DNA from: an uncultured Gammaproteobacteria bacterium
GTDB taxonomy: Bacteria > Patescibacteriota > Patescibacteriia > Magasanikbacterales > GWA2-37-8
Direction of reading: 5' to 3'
DNA length: 64,000 nt
Assembly: GCA_964540825.1 (NCBI GenBank)
Contig: CAZINT010000001.1
Coordinates: 219,396 to 283,395, forward strand
Shown here: piece by piece, positions 7,453-50,760 of the stretch
How positions within the stretch are numbered: the stretch's first letter is position 1
Layout of the letters: each line of letters begins with the position of its first letter
The notes under the pieces: model-generated
The model's database searches: none
What the model saw: only the letters and a program-made list of their open reading frames with translations
Told to the model about the DNA's origin: nothing
Translations under genes and position numbers: made by a program

Positions 7453-8205
7453 GTGGCGACGCACAATGCTCTCGGTGACCCCGATGGTCCAACCCCTCCC
7501 TATGAGGACACAGCGGAGCTTAAAATTCCGCCTTCGCTTCGTGTTCGAATCAAGCAGGGGTTGGGGTGGACCTACGAGGTCGTGCTCGTTCCGGTCTGGA
7601 ACCGTGGGTTGAAGCCGCTGACGTCACCCATCATCGTTCGGGTGCCCAGTGCCGTCTCGTTCATGCGGCAGCAGCGGTGGAACATCGCACTCTTCGCTGC
7701 TCTGCTCCTGGCTATCGTGCTTGCATACGTAGGTTACAAGTACGAGACTGCCCGCATGCGGGCTGCCTTCGTTCCGGCCGATCAGGGCGAGCACAGCACG
7801 GCGACACCTGTTGACCGTGATAGCGACGGTGTGGCGGACGAGACGGATCAGTGTCCCGATGTAGCGTCCGGCCCCACGCCGGATGCGAAGCGGCCCGGTT
7901 GCCCAGCGCCCGAGCAACCTGCTGCTCCGGTCCCGGTCTACCCTGACCTGTCGATCCCTGCGCCTGCCGCGTTGCCCGAAGAACCGCAAGCCGCTCCGCC
8001 CGCTGATGTGGATGGTGATCACGATGGGGAAGCGGCCGTCCCGTCCCGTCGACGTCACGTGCCGCATCGTAGGTTCAAGGCTGCGGTCGAGACGCCGCGG
8101 GCCTTCTGCCTGCGTATGCAGCGGGACCAGCGCTGGAGCCCCTGCTGCCAAGACGGCATCCCGGTCGCATGTTCGCCCGCTTCCTCAGCGCCCCATCGGC
8201 GCTAA
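7453..8205 (+). CDS. high-GC membrane/exported protein with thrombospondin-type-3-like Ca-binding motif (cassette A)
   Basis: GTG start 6 nt after AGGAGG, in frame with the track ORF at 7426. Internal TM helix WNIALFAALLLAIVLAYVGY. Motif DRDSDGVADETDQCPDV...KRPGCP matches the DxDxDGxxDxxDxCP...GCP TSP3/OmpA-linker repeat. Pro-rich. Near-saturated GC3. The C-terminal ~60 aa is Arg-rich and may be frameshifted. Confidence 0.4.
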   Translation: MATHNALGDPDGPTPPYEDTAELKIPPSLRVRIKQGLGWTYEVVLVPVWNRGLKPLTSPIIVRVPSAVSFMRQQRWNIALFAALLLAIVLAYVGYKYETARMRAAFVPADQGEHSTATPVDRDSDGVADETDQCPDVASGPTPDAKRPGCPAPEQPAAPVPVYPDLSIPAPAALPEEPQAAPPADVDGDHDGEAAVPSRRRHVPHRRFKAAVETPRAFCLRMQRDQRWSPCCQDGIPVACSPASSAPHRR

Positions 8206-8286
8206 CCCACGATAGCGTGGAAGAGTCGCGTGTGTTGGAGCTTTTCCGACCGCGCGACTTGCTTTGTTTTTAGCCCCACGAGGCCC

Positions 8287-8315
8287 TTGACAAAACCTTA
8301 AAAATGTGCTATACT
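8287..8315 (+). promoter_or_regulatory. consensus sigma70 promoter for cassette B
   Basis: TTGACA, 17 nt, TGTGC TATACT (extended -10). Followed by an AT-rich leader of about 345 nt before the ATG at 8668. Confidence 0.6.
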
Positions 8316-8667
8316 GATTTGTTACGTAAATAGAAAACCACACAACTAGCCAAGAAGCTCGAGAGAGGCTTCAAAGGTTAGCCAAAAGACCTTGTTTTAG
8401 CCAATTCTCTCACCCCAGGGAGTTTTTTTAGCTAAGAATGAACTAAGGTAAGCGGATTTAGATCCTTTTACCTTAGATCCATTCTAGGGTCTAACGCTCT
8501 TTACAATATAACCCTAGTTAAAAACCTACCCACCAATAATCGGTGAAGTATGGCGCAGAGAATGAGTTACCCAATATTGAGTCATTCATTCTCTGTTCCA
8601 GCTTCATTGTGAAGTTGGGGGAGCTGGAACGCTCAGAAACGTCAACCTTTTCGCTGGAGAAAAGATC

Positions 8668-9834
8668 ATGAACAGCAAGCTCGCCTTTGTCATCGCCATC
8701 CTCGCCGGCCTCTCGTCCACCTCCACCGCCCACGCCTTGAGCAGCGCCCACGACTTCGGTCTGGTCGTCCTGGGTCCCACGGACGAGCCCATCCCGTCGT
8801 GGGACGGGAACCCGGGGTCGATGACCCCGGCGAACGTCTGCAAGGCCGAGGGCAAGATCATGGCCCTTCAGGAGCCGACCGACAAGATCCGTGGTGGCGC
8901 CGTCGCTCAGGATGACCTGACGGCCCGGCGCGGCACGGTGTCGTCGCCCCAGAAGTCGATCGGGATCGTCGCGAACCGCAGCCAGATCGCCGGCAAGCAC
9001 GCCGGCGCCGCCTACTGCGTCGCGAAGTCCCGTGTCCTCTTCGCCGAGGACGTCGAGCAGCTGAACAAGCTCCTCAAGATCCTCCACAGCTTCAACGGCC
9101 CCGACGGCATGACGCGCCTCCGCGCCCTGCTCGGCGACCTGCCGCAGGGCAAGGAGACGATCCGCGAGTGGGTCACCGCCGCCATCACGGCGGGCGATCA
9201 GGGCACTAGCCTCGACTCGGCCAACCCCTTCAGCCCCCTCGCGATCAAGATCGCCCAGCTCATCGCCGAGATCAATCAGATCAAGGTCGAGCTCGAGGCG
9301 CTCAAGGCCCGCGTCGGCCAGCTCGAGACCGCGGTCGCAGAGCACTCGGCTCAGATCGCCAAGCTCCAGCAGACGGGCCCTGTGACCGGTCGGACCTTCG
9401 ATCTTCAGCTCCAGGGCATCGCGAGTGGCAGCCGGTTCATGATCGGTCTCGGCGGTGGTGCGAACCTCGTGTTCCACCTTCCTGTGCCGCGCCTCAGCGT
9501 CAAGTTCGGTGGCGACCTCATGGCCGCCTTCGAGACGGTCGGGTCCAATCGTATGGGCCTCGGCTGGGACGCGCGTGCGTTCGTCCAGTATCAGCTGCGT
9601 GAGTGGCTGACCATTGGCGGCGGGCTCTACATCGTCGGTGATGCTGGTACGATCAACGGTACCCGGTCGTTCGACGTTGGCCCTGCGCTGGACGCCGAGT
9701 TCTGGGTTCACCCGTTCGTCGCCGTCAACGCCTTCGCCTTCATCGGTGGTGGCAAGCACAGCGCCAGCTGGGCCATGTCGCAGCTGGGCGGTGGTGGCGG
9801 TCTCGGGGTCGTCCTGCGTCCCTTCCGCAAGTAG
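8668..9834 (+). CDS. high-GC secreted protein: signal peptide, central coiled coil, Gly-rich beta-rich C-terminal domain (cassette B)
   Basis: SD GGAGAAAAG 5-6 nt upstream. Signal peptide MNSKLAFVIAILAGLSSTSTAHA. Heptad-like IAQLIAEINQIKVELEALKARVGQLETAV. C-terminal alternating hydrophobic beta pattern. GC3 about 90% by eye. Confidence 0.5.
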   Translation: MNSKLAFVIAILAGLSSTSTAHALSSAHDFGLVVLGPTDEPIPSWDGNPGSMTPANVCKAEGKIMALQEPTDKIRGGAVAQDDLTARRGTVSSPQKSIGIVANRSQIAGKHAGAAYCVAKSRVLFAEDVEQLNKLLKILHSFNGPDGMTRLRALLGDLPQGKETIREWVTAAITAGDQGTSLDSANPFSPLAIKIAQLIAEINQIKVELEALKARVGQLETAVAEHSAQIAKLQQTGPVTGRTFDLQLQGIASGSRFMIGLGGGANLVFHLPVPRLSVKFGGDLMAAFETVGSNRMGLGWDARAFVQYQLREWLTIGGGLYIVGDAGTINGTRSFDVGPALDAEFWVHPFVAVNAFAFIGGGKHSASWAMSQLGGGGGLGVVLRPFRK

Positions 9835-9852
9835 CGGATAAACTAGGGTTCG

Positions 9853-9890
9853 GAGGGGAGCGGTGGACAGTAATGTCTGCCGCCCCCTCC
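9853..9890 (+). terminator. GC hairpin after cassette B (putative terminator)
   Basis: ggagggg...cccctcc inverted repeat immediately after the stop. No clear U-run. Confidence 0.35.
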
Positions 9891-9958
9891 AAAACCACAT
9901 TCTGTTTCTGAACAAATGTTCGGCAACAGAAAATGGTTCAGTTAGCCAAAAAAACCTA

Positions 9959-9987
9959 TTGACAAAACCTCAAAAATATGGTATAGT
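9959..9987 (+). promoter_or_regulatory. consensus sigma70 promoter for cassette C
   Basis: TTGACA, 17 nt, TATAGT. About 230-nt AT-rich leader with a long imperfect hairpin (ggtttcgcggtt...aaccgcgaaccc) at 10112-10170. Confidence 0.6.
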
Positions 9988-10224
9988 ATGTCGTTATTAA
10001 ATACAGCAGGTGCTTAGGAGTAGCCCATTAAAAATGGTCTTCTCCTAGACACTTGGCTCTGCCAAAAGTCTACGTTCTTTACAATCACATTGCTACTACT
10101 CAAAATGTTCTCCTGAAGGTTTCGCGGTTATCAGTACTTACTAATTATTTGGTAAGGTACTGGAAACCGCGAACCCGCTGCGTGTCTTAGGACACGCAGC
10201 ACCCACGACCACCAGGAGATGAAC

Positions 10225-10938
10225 ATGAACACGAACCACGTCCGCGCCCTGCTCACCGCCGCCCTGCTCACGCTCGCCCCGACCTTCGTCGTGGGCTGTG
10301 CCCCCGAGCCGATGGACGGCACGCCGTCCACGGTCATCGGCGACCGCGACGGCGACGGCACCAAGGACAACGTCGACAAGTGCCCCGACCTCGCCGGGCC
10401 CGGCAGCAACAACGGCTGCCCGGTCACCAACATGAGCGGGGGCGAGCCCGTGCCCGCCACCCTCACCGACGCGATCTGCTACGATCGGGACCACCACTAC
10501 CCCCACGCCTGCGCGGGGGAGTGCGTGACCAAGGTCCAGGACTCGCTGAACTGCGGCGCCTGCGGCCGCCGGTGCAAGCCGACGGTCGAGGCCTGCGAGA
10601 ACAGCGTCTGCATCCCGGCCGGCTCCGCCAAGTGGGGCGCCTGGGTCCAGAACGCCACCAACCGCACCCTGAACCTCACGGTCGGCCACACCGAGCTCGG
10701 CATCAGCGCCGTCGAGGAGCAGATCACGCTCGCCCCCGGCGCCTGGTGGGGCAACGGCAACTGGACCGGCGTCTACGCCTCCGAGAACCCCTGGAAGGAG
10801 AACGTGATGCAGGAGTCCCTCGCGGACTGCCAGCTCAAGTTCAACGGCAAGGGCCGCCGCGAGGTCGTCTTCAAGACGAACAACCGCACCGGCGTCGGCC
10901 GCTGCGAGTTCAAGACCGACGCGGAGGGTAACCTCTAG
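10225..10938 (+). CDS. high-GC Cys-rich lipoprotein with TSP3-like Ca-binding motif (cassette C)
   Basis: AGGAG 6 nt upstream of the second ATG (10225). Lipobox-like FVVGC. IGDRDGDGTKDNVDKCPDLAGPGSNNGCP is a TSP3-type repeat. Multiple Cys pairs. Five N-x-T sequons. Confidence 0.5.
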   Translation: MNTNHVRALLTAALLTLAPTFVVGCAPEPMDGTPSTVIGDRDGDGTKDNVDKCPDLAGPGSNNGCPVTNMSGGEPVPATLTDAICYDRDHHYPHACAGECVTKVQDSLNCGACGRRCKPTVEACENSVCIPAGSAKWGAWVQNATNRTLNLTVGHTELGISAVEEQITLAPGAWWGNGNWTGVYASENPWKENVMQESLADCQLKFNGKGRREVVFKTNNRTGVGRCEFKTDAEGNL

Positions 10939-11143
10939 CCGGTCCGGTGCGACGAGTAGTAACAAGTGATTACCTACCCTGGTGGGCCCCGCACGACGAC
11001 TCGAAAGAGACGTCTACGCGGGGCCTGCCTTCTACTTCATACTCATAATCTCACCAGATTGTGGAGATACAGTAGAAATAAAATCCTACCAAAACATCCA
11101 CCCTTTCTCTCAAGGCTGGATGTTTTGTTTTTACTCCGACTGT

Positions 11144-11592
11144 AAGCAGGTTAGGCAGAGTAAGTACTAAGCAGAATAAGTTTTTATGTTAGATAATTTC
11201 TTTGGCTTTGTATCCAGCGGGTTAACAGCTTACCAACTTCTTCACACTGACTTCTTGCCTGATTATATTCTGATTCTTTTAGATAGTGTAAGTCGTGGGC
11301 GAGAATGAAGTGATATTTAGTTTCTTCGAGCGAAGCGTCAGCAATATTGTAAAATTTAATACTGTCTCGTAATTCTTTTCTTCTAAATCCTTCAACGATG
11401 TTAGTAGGTACTGAAGCAGCAGATCTTCGTATTTGGCTCGTTAAACCAAAGAGTTCGCTTTTTGGAAATTGGTTGGTAACTTTATAAACAAAAAGCACGA
11501 GCGTATGTGCCTTTTGCCAAACCTGTAATTCTGTAAAAACTTTTATTGTCGTCATGCTTATTCTGCTTAGGACTTACTCTGCCTAATCTGCT
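11144..11592. repeat. 37-bp inverted repeats (2 mismatches) bracketing the four-helix-bundle protein gene
   Basis: Left arm 11144-11180 aagcaggttaggcagagtaagtactaagcagaataag. Right arm 11556-11592 is its reverse complement apart from two mismatches. The arms abut the gene stop and start codons. Confidence 0.7.
11184..11555 (-). CDS. four-helix-bundle protein (23S rRNA intervening-sequence protein family, TIGR02436-like)
   Basis: 123 aa. LTSQIRRSAASVPTNIVEG and overall helical pattern typical of the family. Confidence 0.75.
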   Translation of the reverse strand: MTTIKVFTELQVWQKAHTLVLFVYKVTNQFPKSELFGLTSQIRRSAASVPTNIVEGFRRKELRDSIKFYNIADASLEETKYHFILAHDLHYLKESEYNQARSQCEEVGKLLTRWIQSQRNYLT

Positions 11593-11596
11593 TCGT

Positions 11597-13087
11597 CTAC
11601 GCCTCTCTCGGTTTTTTCGCCGCCCAGTATCCCCAGACCGCCCACATCCACCAGATAACCGGTGTATGATGCAGCATATTGTCTGATAAACTCATTACCA
11701 GGTATACAAGGATGCACAGTAAAAAAGAAAAATGAATCCAGCGGCCACGCAGCAGATCGCGGAATTCGTGGTACATGAGCGTAAAGAAAATACTTAGGTA
11801 TAAAAATAAGCCAATCACGCCGCTTTCAAAGGCGACCTTAAGGTAATCATTGTGGGCTTCGGAAGTGTTATCAAATAAATTTTCGACGCCTTTGTTGTAA
11901 TCCCAGACCTTGCTAAACGAACCGTAGCCATACCCCAGATACGGGCGGGCCTGGAAAAGGGGAATAATTTTGTTGGCAATATCAGCACGCCATTGAATGG
12001 AGTCGGCGTCTTCGTTGCGGCTGGTCAGGCGCGAGATAATACTGTTGCTTTGAAGATTGATATTATACGTATGACCGAGCCAGTTATTGAGCGGGTAAAA
12101 GAGCGTAAAAAAGGCAACACTGCCAACCACAACCCACAAAAAGATTTTTTCGTAATAAAAAAAACAAATAGCCAGAATGAAAGCGGCAAGCCCAATCCAA
12201 GCGACGCGCGTATACGTAAAAGCAATAATCAGGAGTAAAAAAGCAAAAGCAAACGGCGTAAAATCGTGCACATGGTGAATGGTGCGGGCGTTAAAGCGGC
12301 GGAAAAATTGTTTGACTGGCGAAATGAATTGATCGATGAGGTTCTTTTTTTCAAAACGCAGTTGAAAACGGTAGGTATAGTCGGCGAGGACTATAAACAG
12401 GAGTACTGTATAGGTAGCTAAAAGATTAGGGTGGGCAAAGGTGCCAAAAATACGGTTAGATACACCGTCGATGGTCATGCCTGTTCGGGTGACAAGTTGG
12501 TAGGCGGCAAGGAGGAGGGGAAAGCACGAAGCGATAATAAGGCTAAGGTAAAACGGCCAAACAAAGGCTTCGCCTTCTTTGCGGCGCAAAATATTACAGA
12601 CACCAAAAAGCGCAAACAAGTTAGCGGCCTTAAGTGTTTCCGTTATAGTTGATGATTGATCGAAACTGTAAAAAAAAGTGATGGCGCACCAAGCGATAAA
12701 AATAAGCCACGGGTATTTTGCTGGAATTTCTTTCCAATATTCCCGATTTTTAATAAAGAAATAAGCTGCCCAGCCAGCCAACAGCATGGAGATGGCGGCG
12801 TTGATATTGAAGGTAACACTGCCGAGTGAAAAGAAGGAATAGTCACGCAAGCCGTCAATGGTAGGGCGAAAAGCTAAGAAAAGTAAGATCGCTCGTTCGC
12901 CAAAGAGTTTGTGAAGGACGATAAGGGCAATAAGGAGAAACGCCATAATATCCCCCGCGCTCGTGGGGTTAATAATAGTGAAACCAATAAGTCCGATGAT
13001 CAGCCAGGCCCACAAGGCAAAGGTATCGCGCATAGGTAAAATCAAGGTTTTAAGTGTGTTATTCCTGCACGGGAATAACTCGTTCAC
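11597..13087 (-). CDS. O-antigen ligase/Wzy-like polytopic membrane protein (putative)
   Basis: 496 aa, about 12 TM segments with a large loop. Confidence 0.45.
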   Translation of the reverse strand: MNELFPCRNNTLKTLILPMRDTFALWAWLIIGLIGFTIINPTSAGDIMAFLLIALIVLHKLFGERAILLFLAFRPTIDGLRDYSFFSLGSVTFNINAAISMLLAGWAAYFFIKNREYWKEIPAKYPWLIFIAWCAITFFYSFDQSSTITETLKAANLFALFGVCNILRRKEGEAFVWPFYLSLIIASCFPLLLAAYQLVTRTGMTIDGVSNRIFGTFAHPNLLATYTVLLFIVLADYTYRFQLRFEKKNLIDQFISPVKQFFRRFNARTIHHVHDFTPFAFAFLLLIIAFTYTRVAWIGLAAFILAICFFYYEKIFLWVVVGSVAFFTLFYPLNNWLGHTYNINLQSNSIISRLTSRNEDADSIQWRADIANKIIPLFQARPYLGYGYGSFSKVWDYNKGVENLFDNTSEAHNDYLKVAFESGVIGLFLYLSIFFTLMYHEFRDLLRGRWIHFSFLLCILVYLVMSLSDNMLHHTPVIWWMWAVWGYWAAKKPREA

Positions 13088-13091
13088 TTCG

Positions 13092-13120
13092 TTGACAAAG
13101 ACAGGTTTTTATGGTATACT
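13092..13120 (+). promoter_or_regulatory. consensus sigma70 promoter
   Basis: TTGACA, 17 nt, TATACT, 35 nt before the ATG at 13156. Confidence 0.6.
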
Positions 13121-13155
13121 CAGACGTTAACGAATGACTTAAGTATAGCATAAAA

Positions 13156-15231
13156 ATGTGGTATACTACAGTAAAACCTATGAAGCGACTTACTAAACGT
13201 ACCGCCAAAAAAGCCATAGCCCCCAAAAATCATGCACTTGCGTGGTATCGGGGTGTGGTCGGCGTCGCCATCGGCCTTGTGGCCCTGGTTTTTTGTTTTC
13301 GGGCAACAACTATTTCCGCGCCGCTCTTGGCTAATTATTACTTAGGCACACTTCCGCAGGATGATGCGACGATTAGCTTACTGGCGCGTAATGATGTTTT
13401 GGTCTTGAGCAGCGAACAAGGGGTGATTCGTAAAGATGTTATTCAAAAAATCAAACAGAAAAATCCTAAGATTATTTTGCTGGCGTACGTTATCAGTAAA
13501 AGCTACGACTCAAACTGGAAGAATTATCCGGCTAATACCGTCTATAATGATTTCCAGGTTGACGACAGCTGCTGGCTCCGCGACAGTAAGGGTAATATTT
13601 TATCTGACTGGCCAGGACAAAAAAGCTTGAATATGAAAGAGCAGTGTACTGATTATTTGATCCAGTACACTAAGAACCATATTTTGTCGCAGGGTCTTTG
13701 GGATGGTGTTTTTTGGGATGTGGTGAATGGGAATATTGCTTGGACCAACCGGGGTGATATCGATCTCAATGGCGACGGGCAGATTGACAATCCGGCTGCT
13801 GCTGATGCTGAATGGTTGCGTCGGACAAACTACCTGCTCAGTCAGAGCCGTAAAGAGCTGCCGGTAAAATATTTTGTTATTAATGGAACTTCAATTCCGG
13901 CTGTGCAGCCGTATGTGAACGGCCGCATGTTTGAAAACTATCCAACTCCTTGGGAAGCAAATGGTTCGTGGGGAGGCCTCATGACCACGCTCGCCGCCAA
14001 CCAAAAAACAAACGTTGCGCCGCAGTTGTATATTTTTAATGCTAATACCAATAATACCGGTAACCAGTCAGACTACCGTAATATGCGTTTTGGTCTGACG
14101 AGCAGTCTTCTGACCAACAATACTTATTTTGCTTTTGACTATGGAACCAACGACCACAGTCAGACTTGGCAGTATGATGAATACAATGTAAAGCTCGGTG
14201 ATCCGGTTGCTCCGGCGGTATCGCGAAATAACGAAACGCAATTTAAAGAAACGGACGTGTGGAAACGTGAATACACCAACGGCATCGCGCTTGTAAATCC
14301 GACCGGGCAGTCGCAAACGGTAGACCTCGGGGCAGAATACGAAAAAATTATTGGTACGCAAGACAAACGCGTAAACGATGGCGCGATCACAGATCGTGTA
14401 ACGCTCGGCGCGAAAGACGGCATCGTGATGATGAAAACTTTGGAAGGTATCAGCAGTATTAAAAAAACGACTTTTAAAAATGGTTCGTTCTTACGCTTTT
14501 TTGACCTCAAGGGTAATCGTGCGCGTAACGGTTTCTTTGCGTTTGACAGCGCCTACCAAGGCAGTGCGACTATTTATCAGGGCGACCTGGACGGCGACGG
14601 CACGGAAGAAAAAGTAGTGGCAACGGGCGCTAAACTCGAAATTTTTAACAGCAGCGGCGAGCGCTGGTTTAATGATTATCCGTACGGTGGTAATTTTAAA
14701 GGAACGATTCAAATTGCAGTTGGTAAATTCTTCGGGTCCGCGACTAATCAGATTGTAGTTGCTCCTTCTAAAGGCGGAAAGGTATTAATTTATGATTATC
14801 ACGGCACGCTAATTAAGGATGATTTTTATCCGCTTGGTAAAAAATATCAAAACGGTTTTACCGTGGCAGTCGGCAGTCCGACCCCTAAGGATGCCGGCGA
14901 ACTTGTCGTTGGTGTTGGAAAGGGGAGTCCGACCGAAGTGTTGGTTTATGCAAGCGGTTTTGATAAAATCACCAAACGCTTTTTCCCCTATGACAAAAAG
15001 TTTACGGGTGGCGTTGCAATGGCGGTGGGTGATATCAACAATGACGGCGTAAATGAGATTGTAACCTTGCCGACAAAGGGTACCCCAACCGCTCGCGTGT
15101 ATACGACTGCAGGTAAAAAAGTATCTGAATTTAAAATACCATCGCTGTTCGGTTCTGTGCCGGTAGACATTACCATTGCGGATATTAACTTTGACGGCCG
15201 ATCCGAAATCGCTGTCATGAATGGACAATAG
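13156..15231 (+). CDS. secreted protein: N-terminal TM anchor, putative glycan-hydrolase-like domain, C-terminal FG-GAP/VCBS-type repeats
   Basis: 691 aa. Repeats DLDGDGTEEKVV / DINNDGVNEIV / DINFDGRSEIAV. N-terminal family assignment is uncertain. Confidence 0.45.
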   Translation: MWYTTVKPMKRLTKRTAKKAIAPKNHALAWYRGVVGVAIGLVALVFCFRATTISAPLLANYYLGTLPQDDATISLLARNDVLVLSSEQGVIRKDVIQKIKQKNPKIILLAYVISKSYDSNWKNYPANTVYNDFQVDDSCWLRDSKGNILSDWPGQKSLNMKEQCTDYLIQYTKNHILSQGLWDGVFWDVVNGNIAWTNRGDIDLNGDGQIDNPAAADAEWLRRTNYLLSQSRKELPVKYFVINGTSIPAVQPYVNGRMFENYPTPWEANGSWGGLMTTLAANQKTNVAPQLYIFNANTNNTGNQSDYRNMRFGLTSSLLTNNTYFAFDYGTNDHSQTWQYDEYNVKLGDPVAPAVSRNNETQFKETDVWKREYTNGIALVNPTGQSQTVDLGAEYEKIIGTQDKRVNDGAITDRVTLGAKDGIVMMKTLEGISSIKKTTFKNGSFLRFFDLKGNRARNGFFAFDSAYQGSATIYQGDLDGDGTEEKVVATGAKLEIFNSSGERWFNDYPYGGNFKGTIQIAVGKFFGSATNQIVVAPSKGGKVLIYDYHGTLIKDDFYPLGKKYQNGFTVAVGSPTPKDAGELVVGVGKGSPTEVLVYASGFDKITKRFFPYDKKFTGGVAMAVGDINNDGVNEIVTLPTKGTPTARVYTTAGKKVSEFKIPSLFGSVPVDITIADINFDGRSEIAVMNGQ

Positions 15232-15243
15232 GAAGTGTAGGTG

Positions 15244-15310
15244 TAAGCAGAGTAAGTACTAAGCAAAGTAAGTTTTGTGCTTACCTTGCTTACTCTGCCT
15301 AATCTGCTTA
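15244..15310. repeat. solo copy of the palindromic element seen at 11144-11592, between convergent genes
   Basis: taagcagagtaagtactaagcaaagtaag - ttttgtg - cttaccttgcttactctgcctaatctgctta. The arms are shortened versions of the 11144 and 11556 arms with no cargo gene. Confidence 0.6.
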
Positions 15311-15322
15311 CGTTGCTTTAAT

Positions 15323-16446: not shown

Positions 16447-16461
16447 TGTATAGTGAAACAC

Positions 16462-16500
16462 GAAACACAAAGTACAAATATACTTTGTGTTTTTTATTTT
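16462..16500. terminator. bidirectional intrinsic terminator
   Basis: acacaaagt-acaaatat-actttgtgt then tttttatttt, between convergent genes. Confidence 0.6.
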
Positions 16501-45002: not shown

Positions 45003-45074
45003 GGCCCGTTCGTCTATCAGTTAGGACAGTGCCCTCTCACGGCGCAAAGACGGGTGCGATTCCCGTACGGGCTA
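45003..45074 (+). tRNA. atypical tRNA-like gene, anticodon CUC (Glu-like)
   Basis: Hand-folded cloverleaf. Acceptor ggcccgt/acgggct with G1.U72; D-stem gtct/ggac; anticodon stem gtgcc/ggcgc; loop cuCUCac; T-arm acggg-tgcgatt-cccgt. Deviations are G at position 55 and U at position 19. CCA is not encoded. Confidence 0.45.
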
Positions 45075-45089
45075 CAGAGAATTGAAAAA

Positions 45090-45250: not shown

Positions 45251-47221
45251 TTGATAAAATGCGGTATGCAAAACTTGTTAAATGATGTACTAAAACTACT
45301 AGAAAGTGATGATGGGTTTTTTGCGGAAAACAAGATGTTAAAAAATGTTGTAACCGAAGCAGCTCTAAAATTGGATACGGCGCTTTTGGAATTACTACAA
45401 AAAAACAATCAAATAAAAAAGCATTTTTTCGTGCAGGCCGCGGGAGTGTGGTTTTTTGATCAAGACAAGTTTATTAAGTTTATCAACAGCAAAGATTTTC
45501 TGCCTGATTCGTTTACCATTTTTAAGAACCATATAGGTCTTACGGACGGTGACGAGTATCTAAAAGATAGTGGAAAAGTGGTTTTGGCGTGGCCGTATAA
45601 AGATTGTGTTTTGGAGGGAGGACAGGACAAAGAAGATGTAAAACAGAGCGAAATTTTTTATAACGAGACCCTTGCGCCGGATGAAATTGACCGGCTGTTC
45701 GAGCCTAAGGTCTTAACCAATCTTAAAAAGATAGATAAAGACGGTGAACACAAGGTCGAGCAAATAAATGAACAGGATAATTTGATAATCAAAGGTAATA
45801 ATCTTTTAGCCCTCCATTCGTTAAAGAAAAAATATCGCGGCAAGGTTAAGCTGATTTACATTGATCCGCCGTATAACACCGGCAGCGATGGTTTTAACTA
45901 TAACGACAGTTTTAACCATTCAACGTGGCTGACTTTTATGAAAAATCGGCTCGAAGTAGCTAAACAGCTGTTGAGTGAGGAGGGTTCAATTTATATTTCA
46001 ATTGATAACAATGAATTGCCATATCTACAGATTTTAATGGATGAAATTTTTGGAAATGAAAATAAGAAAAATATTATTACTGTAAAAAGAAGTGCTGTTT
46101 CAGGTGCAAAAGTTATCAATCCGGGCGTTGTTAATGTTTCGGAATTTATTATTGTATATTCAAAAGATTTTAAGAAGTGGCAAGCTAATAAAGTTTTTAG
46201 AAAAAAAGGTAGGGATGAGAGGTATAACAACTATATAACAAACTTCGAAAGTGAGCCTGAAAAATGGAAATTTTCTTCAGTATTAGACGGTTGGGCTGAG
46301 TCGCTTGGAATAGAGAAAACAAAATTAAAAAAGTATTTTGGCGATAATTATGATGAGGAATTAGAAAAGTTTTATCTGCTTAATGCTCACAGAATAATGC
46401 AGTTCGTAACACTGGATGAGAATGCGGTTTCAGATGAAGTGATAAAAATAAAAAATAAATCTAAAAATGATTCATCCAGAGTACATCGGTTGAAAAGAGA
46501 AAATGGAAAATTAGATTACTTTATATTTAAAGGAAAAGCGATTTTATTTTTAGTAAACAGATTAATGGAAATTGACGGTGAAAAGGTTTTTGCAGAGCCA
46601 TTAACTGATATTTGGGAGGATGTTCTGCCTAACGACTTACATAACGAAGGTGGAGTATCTTTAAAAAAAGGGAAAAAGCCGGAAAAATTAATTCAAAGAA
46701 TAATTGAGCTCAGCAGTAAGTCTGGTGATTTAATTTTAGATTACCATTTAGGAAGCGGGACAACGGCAGCTGTAGCACATAAAATGGGTAGGCGGTATAT
46801 TTGTGTTGAACAGCTGGATTACGGCAACAATGATAGTGTCGTAAGGTTACAAAATACTATAAAAGGTGAGCAAAGCGGAATTTCAAAAGCTGTAAATTGG
46901 AAAGGCGGGGGCTCTTTTGTGTATGCCGAATTAAAGCAATGGAATGAGGAGTATATGCAGGCTATACAGGAGGCCAAAACTGCAAAGGAAATAGCCGCTA
47001 TTTATAAAAAAATGCGTGCTGAAGCATTTTTCCGGTACGAGGTTGATTTAAGCAGGTTTGAACAGAAGCAATTTGACCAATTGACTTTAGACGAGCAGAA
47101 AAAAGTTTTGCTTCTATGTTTGGACAAAAATCATCTGTATGTAAATTACAGTGAAATGGAAGATGCAACCTATAAAATACTTACCGAAGAAAAGAAAATT
47201 AACAAGCAATTTTACAGCTAA
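45251..47221 (+). CDS. mod: type III restriction-modification methyltransferase (Mod)
   Basis: IYIDPPYNTG (DPPY N6-adenine MTase motif). Very AT-rich. Confidence 0.85.
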   Translation: MIKCGMQNLLNDVLKLLESDDGFFAENKMLKNVVTEAALKLDTALLELLQKNNQIKKHFFVQAAGVWFFDQDKFIKFINSKDFLPDSFTIFKNHIGLTDGDEYLKDSGKVVLAWPYKDCVLEGGQDKEDVKQSEIFYNETLAPDEIDRLFEPKVLTNLKKIDKDGEHKVEQINEQDNLIIKGNNLLALHSLKKKYRGKVKLIYIDPPYNTGSDGFNYNDSFNHSTWLTFMKNRLEVAKQLLSEEGSIYISIDNNELPYLQILMDEIFGNENKKNIITVKRSAVSGAKVINPGVVNVSEFIIVYSKDFKKWQANKVFRKKGRDERYNNYITNFESEPEKWKFSSVLDGWAESLGIEKTKLKKYFGDNYDEELEKFYLLNAHRIMQFVTLDENAVSDEVIKIKNKSKNDSSRVHRLKRENGKLDYFIFKGKAILFLVNRLMEIDGEKVFAEPLTDIWEDVLPNDLHNEGGVSLKKGKKPEKLIQRIIELSSKSGDLILDYHLGSGTTAAVAHKMGRRYICVEQLDYGNNDSVVRLQNTIKGEQSGISKAVNWKGGGSFVYAELKQWNEEYMQAIQEAKTAKEIAAIYKKMRAEAFFRYEVDLSRFEQKQFDQLTLDEQKKVLLLCLDKNHLYVNYSEMEDATYKILTEEKKINKQFYS

Positions 47222-47229
47222 AAATTTTT

Positions 47230-49842
47230 ATGGAAATGGAATTTGAGGAAACGCTTGTTAGAAAATTTAATACGCTGTCTGAAGACGATCATTTAGACAA
47301 GGATATCCCCGATTTTGTAACAAAGAACTTAAACCAAAAGTTTGCTATTCGTAAATATCAAAAAGAAGCTTTTGTGCGTTTTTTGTATTATCTAAATCGC
47401 TATAAAAAGGCTGCCCGGCCCGTGCATTTGCTTTTTCATATGGCTACGGGGAGTGGAAAGACGCTATTAATGGCTGCTGACATCCTGTATTTATATTCCT
47501 TGGGCTACCGCAATTTTATATTTTTTGTAAACAGCACAAACATCATTAAAAAAACTCAAAACAATTTTTTGAATAAGTCAGCTGGCAAATATTTGTTTGC
47601 GGAAAAAATTGTATTCAATAATAGGGAAGTTGAAGTTAAGGAAGTGGAAAATTTTGAAGCCACAAATTCCGACAACATCAACATCCTGTTTACAACTATT
47701 CAGGGCCTGCATAGCCGCCTTAGTACTCCATCGGAAAACGCTATTACCTACACGGATTTTGAAAATACCAAGGTGGCTTTTTTGTCCGATGAAGCACACC
47801 ATATAAGTACACTTACAAAGTCAAAATTAGATAAAGAAGAACAAGAAGAAACTAGAAGTTGGGAATATACCGTAAACAGAATTTTTAAATCCAATGAGCA
47901 AAATGTAATGATAGAGTACACTGCTACGGTTGAGCTAAAGCACGAAGCTGTGGCTCGTAAATATGCTGATAAAATCATTTACCAATACACGCTTAAAAAT
48001 TTCCGTGAAGATGGTTTTTCTAAAGATGTGCAACTACTACAGTCGGATTGGGGTGTTAAAACGAGAGCGTTACAGGCTGTAATTTTAAGTCAATACCGCC
48101 GCAAGGTTGCCGAAAAACATAAAATCCAGTTAAAGCCGGTAATGCTTTTTAAGTCCAAACAAATTAAAGAGTCCGAAGAATTTGAGCAATTTTTTTATAA
48201 AATTATTAAAGGTTTGACAGTTGCTGATATTGCTAAGGTTGAAAGCGCTAGTACAGATGGCATACTAAATCAGGCGTTTAATTATTTTACGGCTAATAAA
48301 ATTATTGCTACTCATTTAGTTAAGGAGATACAGGAAGATTTTGCGCCGGAAAAATGTTTAATTATAAATAGCAAGGCTGATAGCGAAGAAAAACAGATTA
48401 AAGTAAATAGTCTTGAGGACTATAATAATGAAATACGGGTTATTTTTACTACAAATATGCTTAATGAGGGTTGGGATACCCTTAATCTTTTTGATATTGT
48501 AAGATTATACGAAACCAGAGACGCCAAGGCTGGAAAGGGAGGTAGCACGACTATATCGGAAGCGCAATTAATCGGTCGTGGCGCAAGATATTATCCATTT
48601 ACAACGGGCTTGGATCAGGAAAAAGACAGACGCAAGTATGACGGCGCATTAGATAATGAATTGCGAATTTTGGAAGAGCTGCACTATCACAGTTTGACAG
48701 ACAGCCGGTATATTGCCGAATTACGCAACGAACTTGTGAATATCGGTATAACGCCTGATAATCGGGTAGTTAGGAAAGTAAAGATAAAGGATAGTATAAA
48801 GAAGACGCCGTTTTGGAACAGCGGGCTGATTTTTACTAATAAGCTGCAAAAAAATGATTTTGGCAAGGTAAAAACCTTGAGTGATATTGTTCAAAATTCT
48901 TTATTCCAATATAGAATTAAAACCGGCCATTCGTCTGAAACAGGAATTTTTGATAGCGCACAGCCGTTGCCGGCGGAAGAATTACGTAAGAAAATTTTTA
49001 AGCTGAGTGATTTTGAAAAAAATGTTTTAAGGAAAGCATTGGATAAAATTGATTTTTATCATTTTAATAATTTATCTGTATTTTTCCCGAATCTAAAATC
49101 CATTGACGAATTTATAACATCAAAGGATTATTGCGGTCTTGTACAGGTTGAAATTTCGGCTAAAAATGGTAGGCTGGATAATTTGACCATTGCTGATAAA
49201 TACGGTGCAGCCCTGGACGCCTTTAAAGCCTTAGCGGGTAAAATTTCTGTCGGTAACAGTGAATATATTGGCACCAAGGAGTTTTATGCTCAAAGTATTA
49301 AGACCGTGGTACAGGATAAGACTTTAGAAATTTTGATTGGCGGGGATGAAAAAGAGTTTGGCATTGCGATGAGCGAAACCACGAATGACAATTTACGAAT
49401 GGATCTCAGCACGCAGGACTGGTATTTGTATAATGAAAATTATGGCACTTCAGAAGAAAAATATTTTATCCAGTTTATCCGGCAGGCAATGGATGACCTG
49501 AAGAAAAAATATGACGACGTTTATCTACTGAGGAATGAGCGGCTCTTCAAGATTTACCGCTTCAGCGACGGGCAGGCGATAGAGCCAGATTTTGTGCTCT
49601 TTGCCAAAACAAAAAACAGCAAAAATGCAATTTCGTTTCAACTTTTTGTCGAGCCAAAAGGCGGTAACCGACTTTTGGAAGACGGGTGGAAAGAAGAATT
49701 TCTGCAAGAAATAGAAACAGAATTTAGAGTTGAAACTCTGTTTGAAAAGGGTAGATACAAACTTATCGGCCTGCCTTTTTATAATGAGCAAAAAACTAAA
49801 CAGGAATTTTTTAAGATTTTTAGCGAGAAATTAAGTTTATAG
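47230..49842 (+). CDS. res: type III restriction endonuclease (Res), SF2 helicase-like
   Basis: Walker A ATGSGKT, DEAH-box LSDEAHHI, helicase C motifs. 9 nt after mod. Confidence 0.85.
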   Translation: MEMEFEETLVRKFNTLSEDDHLDKDIPDFVTKNLNQKFAIRKYQKEAFVRFLYYLNRYKKAARPVHLLFHMATGSGKTLLMAADILYLYSLGYRNFIFFVNSTNIIKKTQNNFLNKSAGKYLFAEKIVFNNREVEVKEVENFEATNSDNINILFTTIQGLHSRLSTPSENAITYTDFENTKVAFLSDEAHHISTLTKSKLDKEEQEETRSWEYTVNRIFKSNEQNVMIEYTATVELKHEAVARKYADKIIYQYTLKNFREDGFSKDVQLLQSDWGVKTRALQAVILSQYRRKVAEKHKIQLKPVMLFKSKQIKESEEFEQFFYKIIKGLTVADIAKVESASTDGILNQAFNYFTANKIIATHLVKEIQEDFAPEKCLIINSKADSEEKQIKVNSLEDYNNEIRVIFTTNMLNEGWDTLNLFDIVRLYETRDAKAGKGGSTTISEAQLIGRGARYYPFTTGLDQEKDRRKYDGALDNELRILEELHYHSLTDSRYIAELRNELVNIGITPDNRVVRKVKIKDSIKKTPFWNSGLIFTNKLQKNDFGKVKTLSDIVQNSLFQYRIKTGHSSETGIFDSAQPLPAEELRKKIFKLSDFEKNVLRKALDKIDFYHFNNLSVFFPNLKSIDEFITSKDYCGLVQVEISAKNGRLDNLTIADKYGAALDAFKALAGKISVGNSEYIGTKEFYAQSIKTVVQDKTLEILIGGDEKEFGIAMSETTNDNLRMDLSTQDWYLYNENYGTSEEKYFIQFIRQAMDDLKKKYDDVYLLRNERLFKIYRFSDGQAIEPDFVLFAKTKNSKNAISFQLFVEPKGGNRLLEDGWKEEFLQEIETEFRVETLFEKGRYKLIGLPFYNEQKTKQEFFKIFSEKLSL

Positions 49843-49851
49843 TTTTAATTT

Positions 49852-50760
49852 GTGTCCCTCTTCAAAATCACCAATCAAAAAACCAAGAAAATTCTTCCTG
49901 CTAAAGTTCTTAAAGAACAATACATACATTCTTTATTTGAAGCTAACCTTGAGGAATTACTCGGTATATACTTTTTGGCACACGAATATAGCACCTCGGC
50001 AGGCGGTAGAATCGATACGCTTGGAGTAGATAAAAACGGTTCACCGTGCGTGATTGAATATAAAAAAGGCCAAAACGACAATGTTATTAATCAAGGATTG
50101 TCGTATTTACGCTGGCTTTTGGATCACAAAGCCGATTTTGAAAGGCTGTGCCAAAACAAAAATTTTAAAGTGAGTATTGATTGGACTTCGCCTCGAGTTA
50201 TTTGTATCGCTGAAAACTATAATAAGTTTGATATCGATACCGTAGAAATATTGCCCATAAAAATTGAATTGTTAAAATACGGCTTGTATGATGGCGGGTT
50301 GTTGCAGTTGGAACACGAGAAACACGACAATATAAAAGTAAGTACAGGTGAAATATATAAAAATTCCAAGAAAGACAATAAGGTAGTGGGCGAAAAGCTT
50401 CAAAAAGAATATAGCGTTGATCATCATTTGCAAGGCAAAAAAGAAGAAATCAAAAAAATCTTTTTTGATATTAGGGAATGGGTCACTAACCTTGATAAGG
50501 ATATTGTTGAGGAACCGAAAAAGTTATATGTCGCCTATAAGTTAGCCACCAATTTTGTTGATGTCGAAATTCGGAGTAAAGATATAAAACTATTTTTGAA
50601 TATACCAAAGGGGAAATTAAATGATCCTCTGGGGTTGGCTCGAGATGTTTCGAGCGTTGGGCATTGGGGAAATGGCGATTATGAGGTAAAAATAACTACT
50701 AAGAGCGATTTAGAGCCTGTGTATGGCCTGGTGCGGCAGAGTTATGAATTTAATAAATAA
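49852..50760 (+). CDS. PD-(D/E)xK nuclease-like protein (DUF91/NucS-like N-terminus plus C-terminal domain of unknown function)
   Basis: GGRIDTLGVDKNGSPCVIEYKKGQ (D...ExK). 9 nt after res. Same AT-rich composition. Confidence 0.45.
   Translation: MSLFKITNQKTKKILPAKVLKEQYIHSLFEANLEELLGIYFLAHEYSTSAGGRIDTLGVDKNGSPCVIEYKKGQNDNVINQGLSYLRWLLDHKADFERLCQNKNFKVSIDWTSPRVICIAENYNKFDIDTVEILPIKIELLKYGLYDGGLLQLEHEKHDNIKVSTGEIYKNSKKDNKVVGEKLQKEYSVDHHLQGKKEEIKKIFFDIREWVTNLDKDIVEEPKKLYVAYKLATNFVDVEIRSKDIKLFLNIPKGKLNDPLGLARDVSSVGHWGNGDYEVKITTKSDLEPVYGLVRQSYEFNK

Follow-up and report, generated by a model that had tools for sequence, protein, structure and literature searches.

What kind of genetic element places a gene of the PF05635/TIGR02436 family between long inverted repeats? 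The family was first seen in rRNA genes, ORF-carrying intervening sequences (IVSs) of the 23S rRNA being present in Leptospira and Coxiella burnetii, and the origin of these IVSs is a question dating from the early 1990s. It is a very large protein family for which structures have been solved, and we know of no function assigned to it apart from diversity-generating retroelements (DGRs). The stretch of Patescibacteria DNA analysed here, 64 kb in length and hereafter called the window, raises the question at a locus where the stem encloses the ORF and a related hairpin lies nearby.

[quoted passage not shown] The original prediction of a TIGR02436-like gene at this position was borne out, as the protein matches PF05635 with 133.9 bits (cut-off 33.8; E = 3e-39) and TIGR02436 with 125.2 bits (cut-off 24), PF22296, an Avd-related fold family, being the sole further Pfam match (46 bits). 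The protein has no catalytic motif. In addition, it is similar to two PDB depositions of five chains each, 2GSC (XCC0516; E = 4e-16) and 2RLD. Comparison with a syntenic relative (L001) yielded a dN of 0.17 and a dS of 1.9 (dN/dS about 0.09), and the ORF is under purifying selection. By the PF22296 match it shares a homologous fold family with Avd, the accessory protein of DGRs, and by analogy to this nucleic-acid-binding pentamer the window protein probably binds nucleic acid. However, it is distinct from the DGR proteins themselves, as it scores 53 bits against the NCBIfam Avd equivalog NF033474 (cut-off 80) and no reverse transcriptase domain was detected among the scanned neighbours of the ORF.

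On the sense strand, the 5′-arm of the stem (AAGCAGATTAGGCAGAGTAAGTCCTAAGCAGAATAAG; 11557-11593, minus strand), composed of degenerate TAAGCAGAG-type units of about 9 nt, begins 3 nt past the stop codon of the upstream co-directional gene of the Wzy_C/O-antigen-ligase family (11597-13087, minus strand) and ends 1 nt before the ATG of the ORF. The 3′-arm (CTTATTCTGCTTAGTACTTACTCTGCCTAACCTGCTT; 11144-11180, minus strand) starts 3 nt past the ORF stop codon. The two arms, each 37 nt in length with two mismatches (95% complementarity) and separated by 376 nt, delimit an element of 450 nt (11144-11593) and represent the longest inverted repeat of the window at arm spacings of up to 700 nt. Arm length, mismatches and the left arm had been predicted correctly, whereas the right arm had been placed one base off, at 11556-11592. 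RNA folding, which had been proposed as a check, was performed with a 481-nt RNA and recovered the terminal stem in the MFE as well as in the centroid structure (z = -4.45).

This anatomy resembles that of the rRNA IVSs with regard to the protein family and to the terminal complementary sequences, which pair into a long stem and leave the ORF in the loop. Likewise, the length of 450 nt falls into the range of roughly 400-760 nt of elements with an S23p/PF05635 product, and is close to the 444 nt of the Coxiella burnetii IVS, which comprises a 28-bp stem and an S23p ORF and is cut by RNase III (PMC4990558). 23S_rRNA_IVP ORFs have also been reported in 16S and 23S insertions of CPR bacteria (PMC11270868). 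Moreover, in another Patescibacteria genome (L052) a 107-nt hairpin of the TAAGCAGAG family replaces 8 nt at the tip of helix 6 of the 16S rRNA. In contrast to the IVSs, the window element does not interrupt a helix of the 23S or 16S rRNA. It closes a protein-coding operon at the 3′-end, behind the Wzy_C gene, and many of its relatives are located between cistrons. The predicted location outside any rRNA agrees with an Rfam scan, which revealed no rRNA in the 64-kb window, and rRNA embedding was observed for none of 20 sampled relatives with gene-poor flanks. The arms differ as well, being arrays of short tandem units common to dispersed empty hairpins. RNase III excision is established for the rRNA-borne elements only, and by analogy to these the enzyme probably cuts the stem of the window element; no RNase III signature was found within the window, to which this search was confined. 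On anatomy alone, we set aside integron attC cassettes, group I/II introns and type I toxin-antitoxin loci: the ORF splits the palindrome into two halves, and the window contains no intron RNA family match. We lean, if by a small margin of confidence, towards the interpretation that this stem-loop gene cassette of about 450 bp is an extra-ribosomal version of the ORF-carrying rRNA IVS.

In the literature we found no description of a stem-around-ORF architecture outside rRNA. To determine how far the design extends, relatives at 33-60% identity were sampled from 66 metagenome and 32 IMG/VR loci. Of the 66 metagenome loci, 58 scored above the 99th percentile of 379 shifted controls for bracketing by inverted arms, a score that neighbouring real genes reached in 5 of 168 cases (3%; Mann-Whitney p = 3e-25). 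Brackets are likewise present at 27 of the 32 IMG/VR loci, so that about 87% of the 98 relatives exhibit the same design. Bracketing is hence close to a family-wide rule and not a peculiarity of the window locus, a point that the original prediction had missed. The arm sequences vary by locus; the constant feature is an array of tandem, mostly purine-rich units of 6-9 nt on the 5′-side and its complement on the 3′-side. In L032, L021 and L036, where the PF05635 gene is divergent, the brackets consist of other unit families, and the one of L032 is also present without cargo at a different site of that genome. Across the relatives the elements are 391-558 nt long and the arms of the bracketed ones abut the neighbouring genes: in 40 of 45 identifiable cases the upstream neighbour is co-directional and terminates at the arm (median gap about 0), and at 23 of 41 loci the arms touch the stop of the upstream gene as well as the start of the downstream one. 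The relatives without brackets were considered as DGR Avd genes and rejected as such, the neighbours of those checked being housekeeping or R-M genes with no reverse transcriptase.

These numbers bear on the possibility that two independent gene-end hairpins or terminators stand by coincidence beside an ordinary small gene. Hairpins are indeed found at many gene ends in these genomes, but each flank of the ORF contains one arm only, which has no partner on its own side. In 52 of the 58 bracketed metagenome loci the arms pair better with each other across the ORF than within any local self-hairpin, and the low frequency of brackets at neighbouring genes likewise renders such a coincidence extremely improbable. 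Furthermore, the true terminator-like structure sits just outside the 3′-arm, where a separate imperfect hairpin with 16-nt arms and one mismatch is followed by a T-run (11090-11135); it is likely to represent the end of both the Wzy-IVP transcript and the convergent plus-strand gene. A simple terminator scan did not pick this hairpin.

Inverted repeats of 25-40 bp around a segment of about 380 bp could also mediate inversion of the ORF relative to an upstream promoter and thereby phase-variable expression. In line with such a DNA-level function, mismatches within the arms do not show an excess of G-U (49) over A-C (68) on the sense strand (p = 0.10), and complementarity may therefore be maintained at the DNA level and not by selection on the sense RNA, a point against the IVS-like cassette; in addition, 5 of 45 elements are oriented opposite to the upstream gene. 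However, an orientation of 40 versus 5 is a strong sense bias, there is no invertase near the window element, and the rRNA-borne as well as the empty short-loop hairpins contain nothing to invert. We thus consider an invertible cassette very unlikely.

With respect to expression, no strong promoter-like site is present between the Wzy_C gene and the 5′-arm, and consequently the Wzy_C transcript most likely runs on into the cassette. The genes in the neighbourhood encode Wzy_C, GHL15 and PALP proteins, besides unknown high-GC ORFs, and the PADLOC defence models gave no match for the locus. Sequestration of the Shine-Dalgarno sequence was dropped as a role of the 5′-arm, because such motifs are found at 5 of 42 genes and are thus nearly absent from this genome.

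An ORF-less hairpin of the same unit family (15243-15311) takes up the intergenic gap of 91 nt where the convergent GHL15 and PALP genes stop, at 15231 and 15323, respectively. A stand-alone hairpin between convergent genes had been predicted and is real, although it spans one base more at each end than the proposed 15244-15310. Identity to the element around the ORF amounts to 91% for the left arm (with 11152-11184) and to 100% for the outer 21 nt of the right arm (with 11573-11593); for the right arm TRF indicates a 9-nt period. The hairpin folds with -32 kcal/mol, at z-scores of -4.9 on one strand and -6.1 on the other. Neither this hairpin nor the stem around the ORF qualifies as an intrinsic terminator, for which a short GC-rich stem and a U-run are expected: no T-run follows either of them on either strand, and both are absent from the terminator scan. 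Within the window the arm 20-mer has three matches at up to three mismatches, with 0 expected; the repeat family is confined to these two loci and there is no second PF05635 ORF.

In searches of related genomes, many Patescibacteria MAGs were found to contain the 20-nt arm core 3-7 times each. Most of these copies are hairpins without cargo, and one is located within the 16S rRNA mentioned above. Among 87 genome matches, about 31-43 are empty hairpins and 3 are independent filled ones, and the arms consist of modular units whose number varies across these loci. This corresponds to an inverted tandem short-unit repeat, with intergenic arms of 7-9-nt units and many copies per genome, and supports the proposed dispersed palindromic family with ORF-bearing and cargo-less members. 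At the metagenome loci, additional copies of the respective arm family show no clear enrichment within the 3-kb flanks on either side, with 5 of 33 cases (15%) against a background of 7%. On balance, and again with somewhat more confidence than doubt, we regard the hairpin around the PF05635 gene as one member of a palindromic hairpin family that is lineage-wide and has TAAGCAGAG-type tandem arms, the gene occupying its apical loop.

Which gene ends carry a filled and which an empty hairpin varies from genome to genome, and it is this distribution that suggests mobility of the hairpin family. A filled site in L045 was rejected as a full orthologue of the empty hairpin of the window, since the PALP side alone matches and the convergent gene differs. 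The arms might accordingly be viewed as terminal inverted repeats of a MITE-like non-autonomous transposon that depends on a transposase encoded elsewhere, with the ORF as passenger and the dispersed short empty hairpins as deletion derivatives; besides the variable gene ends, a frameshifted ORF with intact arms, observed in L072, would fit this explanation. Yet there is no transposase near the window element and no target-site duplication at either this element or the 15243-15311 hairpin, the arms are modular with variable unit number instead of fixed ends and are wholly different between related elements, and the cargo is always one protein family. We regard a MITE-like origin as unlikely. 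Moreover, the locus is stable where it was checked. L001, which shares 77% protein identity with the window ORF, has kept not only the synteny but also the arms, with two compensatory double substitutions in the outer stem (G-C to A-T and T-A to G-C), and their conservation in this syntenic relative speaks against the chance palindrome that the original prediction had left as its refutation. The gene is stably syntenic here and in three Xanthomonadales genomes, which is not what one would expect of an element in active movement.

The crystallised Xanthomonas homologue XCC0516 lies between accB and accC within inverted arms of GGGAATC heptamers. Its orthologues in Xanthomonas and Stenotrophomonas share this position and the GGGAATC arms (fold z = -8.9), and in the three Xanthomonadales genomes sampled the locus is stable, the gene being single-copy and vertically kept. 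In Xanthomonas, 70 inverted GGGAATC pairs have been described (Rehm 2015, PMC4692102), and in Geobacter metallireducens paired 'global regulator sites' (Aklujkar 2009, PMC2700814); for these repeats G-quadruplexes or regulator binding were proposed, and they were not tied to PF05635 genes. Both resemble the elements described here in that tandem units of 7-9 nt face their own complement at intergenic or intercistronic sites, in tens of pairs per genome, and one of the Xanthomonas pairs contains the XCC0516 gene. The window units differ from them in being TAAGCAGAG-type, A/G-rich and not G4-prone.

A single gene between inverted palindromic repeats with scattered cargo-less intergenic copies is also reminiscent of the REP/REPIN-RAYT systems, in which a single REP-flanked RAYT gene serves dispersed REPINs. 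The window cargo, however, is a 123-aa four-helix bundle and not an HUH/Y1 tyrosine transposase (IS200/IS605-like), and its arms are modular tandem units in contrast to a fixed REP sequence. Could the protein nevertheless be the trans-acting factor of its own hairpin family? It would then recognise the tandem units, in RNA or DNA form, and determine in a RAYT/REPIN-like manner how all copies are processed, how stable they are or how they spread; the stem of its own gene would give autoregulation. Such a role is compatible with the IVS-like cassette. The dispersal of the bracketing repeat in the same genome in Patescibacteria and Xanthomonas, the kinship to the RNA- and RT-binding pentamer Avd together with the five chains of the PDB relatives, and the single-copy, vertically kept gene under purifying selection are in accord with this idea. 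In the CAZWKA genome, two PF05635 subfamilies reside in two different hairpin families, each with empty copies. In addition, the 20-mer core is shared by Patescibacteria MAGs of different group names despite saturated synonymous sites. On the other hand, proteins of 50-60% identity are housed in arms that are unrelated to each other, and the link between arm type and protein clade is confounded, since it also follows the phylogeny of the hosts and since arm and ORF are inherited together. The protein lacks a catalytic motif and its binding is predicted, and the PADLOC result does not favour such a system either. A cognate two-part system is therefore a tentative proposal, and we would likewise put forward only with reserve its generalisation, i.e. 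that PF05635 proteins and tandem-unit hairpins constitute a widespread two-component system in which each protein recognises the units of its own hairpin family and governs how all its copies are processed, stabilised or propagated, and in which the ORF-bearing hairpin is the 'master' copy. If true, one such system would unite the rRNA IVSs, the GGGAATC pairs of Xanthomonas and the paired sites of Geobacter as its different manifestations.

Returning to the IVS-like cassette, we infer its processing, mobility and protein function as follows. It would lack a promoter of its own and depend on read-through of the Wzy-type gene upstream. As soon as the 3′-arm has been synthesised, an RNA stem of about 37 bp would loop out the cassette, cover the start-codon region of the ORF and rejoin the flanks, and this long perfect duplex would be offered to RNase III for cleavage as in the rRNA-borne members. 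This would explain why rRNA helices, gene ends and intercistronic sites all tolerate the insertion. Recombination or deletion via the repeated arms probably converts ORF-bearing into empty hairpins and vice versa.

Taken together, the data suggest a general class, with the rRNA cases as its visible tip, in which a gene cassette resides in the loop of a tandem-unit hairpin at gene ends or between cistrons, and which appears to take in the orphan GGGAATC pairs of Xanthomonas and possibly the paired sites of Geobacter. For the PF05635/TIGR02436 family this provides a concrete context rule for annotation. It also yields the testable idea that the stem loops the cassette out and thereby leaves the host RNA or operon functional, for which XCC0516 between accB and accC in Xanthomonas campestris represents a tractable, culturable test case.

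The PF05635 cassette is enclosed by two 37-nt arms, namely AAGCAGGTTAGGCAGAGTAAGTACTAAGCAGAATAAG (plus strand, positions 11144-11180) and its complement at 11557-11593, which are separated by 376 nt and differ from perfect pairing by two mismatches. When arms up to 700 nt apart are considered, this pair represents the longest inverted repeat of the window. The inverted arms and the number of mismatches thus agree with the original prediction, whereas the right arm had been placed one base off. The sole ORF between the arms (11184-11555, minus strand) encodes a 123-aa protein that matches PF05635 with E=3e-39 and TIGR02436 with 125 bits (cut-off 24), and its assignment to the 23S rRNA intervening-sequence-type proteins (IVPs) is therefore upheld. 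The score against the equivalog for Avd, the accessory protein of diversity-generating retroelements (DGRs), was 53 bits and below the threshold of 80, and the nearest solved structures are XCC0516 (2GSC) and 2RLD. As predicted, the element lies outside any rRNA, since no rRNA was found in the window; likewise, neither a further PF05635 ORF nor a third repeat locus was found within it. When the 481-nt stretch was folded as RNA, the terminal stem was present in the minimum-energy structure as well as in the centroid (z = -4.45), in line with the proposed enclosure of the ORF by a long stem.

The cargo-less copy of the palindrome was likewise confirmed. This stand-alone hairpin (15243-15311) fills the gap between the convergent GHL15/FG-GAP and PALP stops and folds with approximately -32 kcal/mol on both strands. 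On the left side, hairpin and element arms match at 91% identity, the match taking in four bases past the arm of the element, and the two right arms agree exactly over their outer 21 nt. The diagnostic 20-mer occurs three times in the window, with 0 occurrences expected. In addition, we observed a tandem-unit hairpin (AAACACG/AAACACA) followed by a T-run at 16456-16499, in the interval that separates the LysW stop from the Mur-ligase stop; at the corresponding junction, relatives have either a hairpin of the TAAGCAGAG type or one filled with an IVP.

The arms are conserved in a syntenic relative, L001 (GCA_964634875.1), which shares the gene order Mur ligase, LysW, PALP, GHL15, Wzy_C and IVP with the window. 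Its IVP, 77% identical to that of the window, is also encoded between arms of the window type. Alignment of the two elements revealed two compensatory double changes in the outer stem (G-C to A-T and T-A to G-C), together with two single-base changes, of which one re-establishes a pair and the other introduces a mismatch. Comparison of the two ORFs yielded a dN of 0.17 and a dN/dS of about 0.09, with synonymous sites close to saturation. Pairing and ORF are therefore both maintained. Taken together, the finding at the window locus is well supported.

The closest homologues stem from Patescibacteria, Magasanikbacteria being the commonest name among the best matches, and Shine-Dalgarno motifs are scarce in the window genome (5 of 42 genes). 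Read along the sense strand, the stop of the co-directional Wzy_C gene is followed after 3 nt by the 5′ arm, which leaves 1 nt before the ATG, and the 3′ arm begins 3 nt beyond the stop codon of the ORF. Given this spacing, a distinct imperfect hairpin and its T-run beyond the 3′ arm (11090-11135), and the lack of a good promoter-like site in the gap from the Wzy_C gene to the arm, the cassette looks like the last cistron of the Wzy_C transcript. None of the neighbouring genes scanned codes for a reverse transcriptase, and PADLOC gave no match. The window element is not an intrinsic terminator, nor does it look like a DGR or a recognisable transposon.

Immediately adjoining the cassette is a block of approximately 60% GC (8000-11000), compared with about 45% elsewhere, which comprises ORFs of unknown function at 8668-9834 and 10219-10938, the latter with a weak match to the Cys-rich Stig1. 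The corresponding place in L001 (5600-10384) also consists of high-GC DNA, with ORFs unrelated to those of the window, which gives the block the look of a variable insertion site for foreign DNA. Moreover, a stretch of low GC (34-37%; 46000-50000) with two large ORFs begins just past a tRNA-Glu gene (45003-45075) and may be an island at this tRNA gene.

Beyond this locus, we scored bracketing across the PF05635 family by aligning the start-codon region with the reverse complement of the stop-codon region, employing the 99th percentile of 379 shifted controls as threshold. Of 80 metagenome loci encoding relatives with 43-60% identity, 66 were usable, and 58 of these scored above the threshold, compared with 5 of 168 real neighbouring genes (Mann-Whitney p = 3e-25). 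In 52 of the 58 loci, pairing across the ORF surpasses every local self-hairpin. IMG/VR contigs with relatives of 33-55% identity gave a similar picture (27 of 32 bracketed). In the relatives sampled, the inverted-arm bracket appears to be a property of the PF05635 gene family. The loci have the design in common and not the arm sequence: the sense-strand 5′ arm consists of tandem 6-9-nt units (e.g., aggagacag, gaacacaa, agggagt, aatcagg, taagctg or tcagagt), mostly purine-rich (mean purine fraction 0.69), and the 3′ arm of their complement. The metagenome elements measure 391-558 nt. Where an upstream neighbour could be identified, it reads in the same direction as the ORF in 40 of 45 cases and stops at the arm (median gap approximately 0); at 23 of 41 loci, the arms lie directly against the upstream stop on one side and the downstream start on the other. 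Two loci (L129, 111-150; L152, around 800-840) carry extra arm arrays of the same unit family upstream of the gene preceding the IVP, resulting in three-arm arrangements. Two IMG/VR contigs (L180 and L181, 107-2983) contain a PF05635-like segment within a 958-aa ORF with an Eco57I-type restriction-modification methylase domain, and lack a flanking inverted repeat.

The proposed element family extends beyond the window. The degenerate arm core AGCARRKTARGCAGAGTAAG, searched for in a single genome of each species, yielded 87 stretches, mostly in Patescibacteria MAGs with 3-7 per genome. Nearly all are hairpins when read in register, built of 2-5 units of the TAAGCAGAG, TAGGCAGAT or TAAGTAC type, a short loop and complementary CTTACTCTG-type units; a strict score counted 31 hairpins plus about a dozen imperfect ones, and the remainder are arrays without a partner or matches that arose by chance in unrelated bacteria. 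As to whether other copies carry the ORF or reside in rRNA, both occur. Only three independent loci bear a PF05635 ORF enclosed by the arms (L013, which equals L001; L072; and L087), and in another Patescibacteria MAG (CAZPCV010000048.1; L052, 5892-6380) a TAAGCAGAG-type hairpin is located at the tip of 16S rRNA helix 6, with approximately 107 nt where the 16S model has 8 nt. In two genomes (L029, 2245-2320; L086, 2692-2765) a family hairpin runs exactly up to the start of the tmRNA gene. The gene ends of the conserved Mur-LysW-PALP-GHL15 cluster differ among genomes, holding an empty hairpin of the TAAGCAGAG family, a hairpin of other units, an IVP-filled hairpin (after the Mur ligase in L090, PALP in L045 and a GHL15 homologue in L087) or nothing.

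Three divergent Patescibacteria PF05635 genes (L032, L021 and L036) possess arms of other, A/T-rich unit families, and the genome with L032 has an empty hairpin of the L032 family at another site. The L021 gene, with its own, different arms, is flanked by two identical (TAAGCAGAG)n-containing segments of at least approximately 140 nt (positions 2002 and 4475, 2.47 kb apart). In L072 (346-721) the ORF is frameshifted and the 31-nt arms are still 90% complementary, which looks like cargo decaying inside a retained stem. Many MAGs titled 'uncultured Gammaproteobacteria' (TPA_asm; L013, L023, L014, L010 and others) contain Patescibacteria-type hairpins, and at least three (CAZWKA, CAZHFX and CAYFPM) share the Mur-LysW-PALP-GHL15 cluster with the window; these titles therefore look unreliable.

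For the crystallised XCC0516, which comes from a cultured organism, orthologous genes occupy the accB-accC interval in X. campestris, X. sacchari and a Stenotrophomonas. There, the 5′ arm GGGAATCGGGAGTGGAGAATCGGGAATCGG lies 6 nt past the accB stop, the 3′ arm CCCATTCCCCATTCTCGACTCCCTATTCCC reaches the accC ATG, and the arm stem closes the RNA fold (z = -8.9). The heptamer of these arms, GGGAATC, was catalogued by Rehm et al. (PMC4692102) at 186 Xanthomonas sites, 70 of them inverted pairs, and discussed as a G-quadruplex candidate; a term search of that paper retrieved no link to an XCC0516-type gene. Similar paired tandem 7-9-nt sites, for instance between proB and proA, are described for Geobacter metallireducens by Aklujkar et al. 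(PMC2700814), who guessed at regulator binding. In X. sacchari (L173, 3800-4060), a second GGGAATC inverted pair directly follows accC and encloses approximately 190 nt, in which no PF05635 ORF was seen by eye.

With respect to known systems, the window element shows the structural hallmarks of an rRNA intervening sequence (IVS), but not its defining location in rRNA, and it has the layout of a REPIN-RAYT system without the enzyme. IVP ORFs have been reported from CPR rRNA insertions (PMC11270868). We found no statement of a systematic tandem-unit stem-loop housing of PF05635 genes outside rRNA, though literature coverage was incomplete and this absence is no proof. The family-wide generalisation, which goes beyond the local finding, is the interesting part.

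For rRNA-borne members, RNase III cleaves at mid-stem and the RNA is unstable once excised (PMC4990558). Judged by its anatomy, the window element would be such an IVS object in an mRNA context. Read-through transcription out of the Wzy_C gene would be followed by formation of the 37-bp stem after transcription of the 3′ arm, which would loop out the cassette, juxtapose its flanks and cover the start region of the ORF; RNase III could then cleave the long duplex. A purely RNA-level account is, however, countered by the arm mismatches, which lack a G-U bias on the sense strand (G-U vs A-C, 49 vs 68). Renewal of the complementarity may therefore take place in the DNA, e.g., by conversion between the arms or among family members. 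Homology to Avd suggests that the PF05635 protein may bind nucleic acid. Looping-out and RNase III cleavage of the transcript would explain why rRNA helices, gene ends and the junctions of essential cistrons all tolerate the same cassette.
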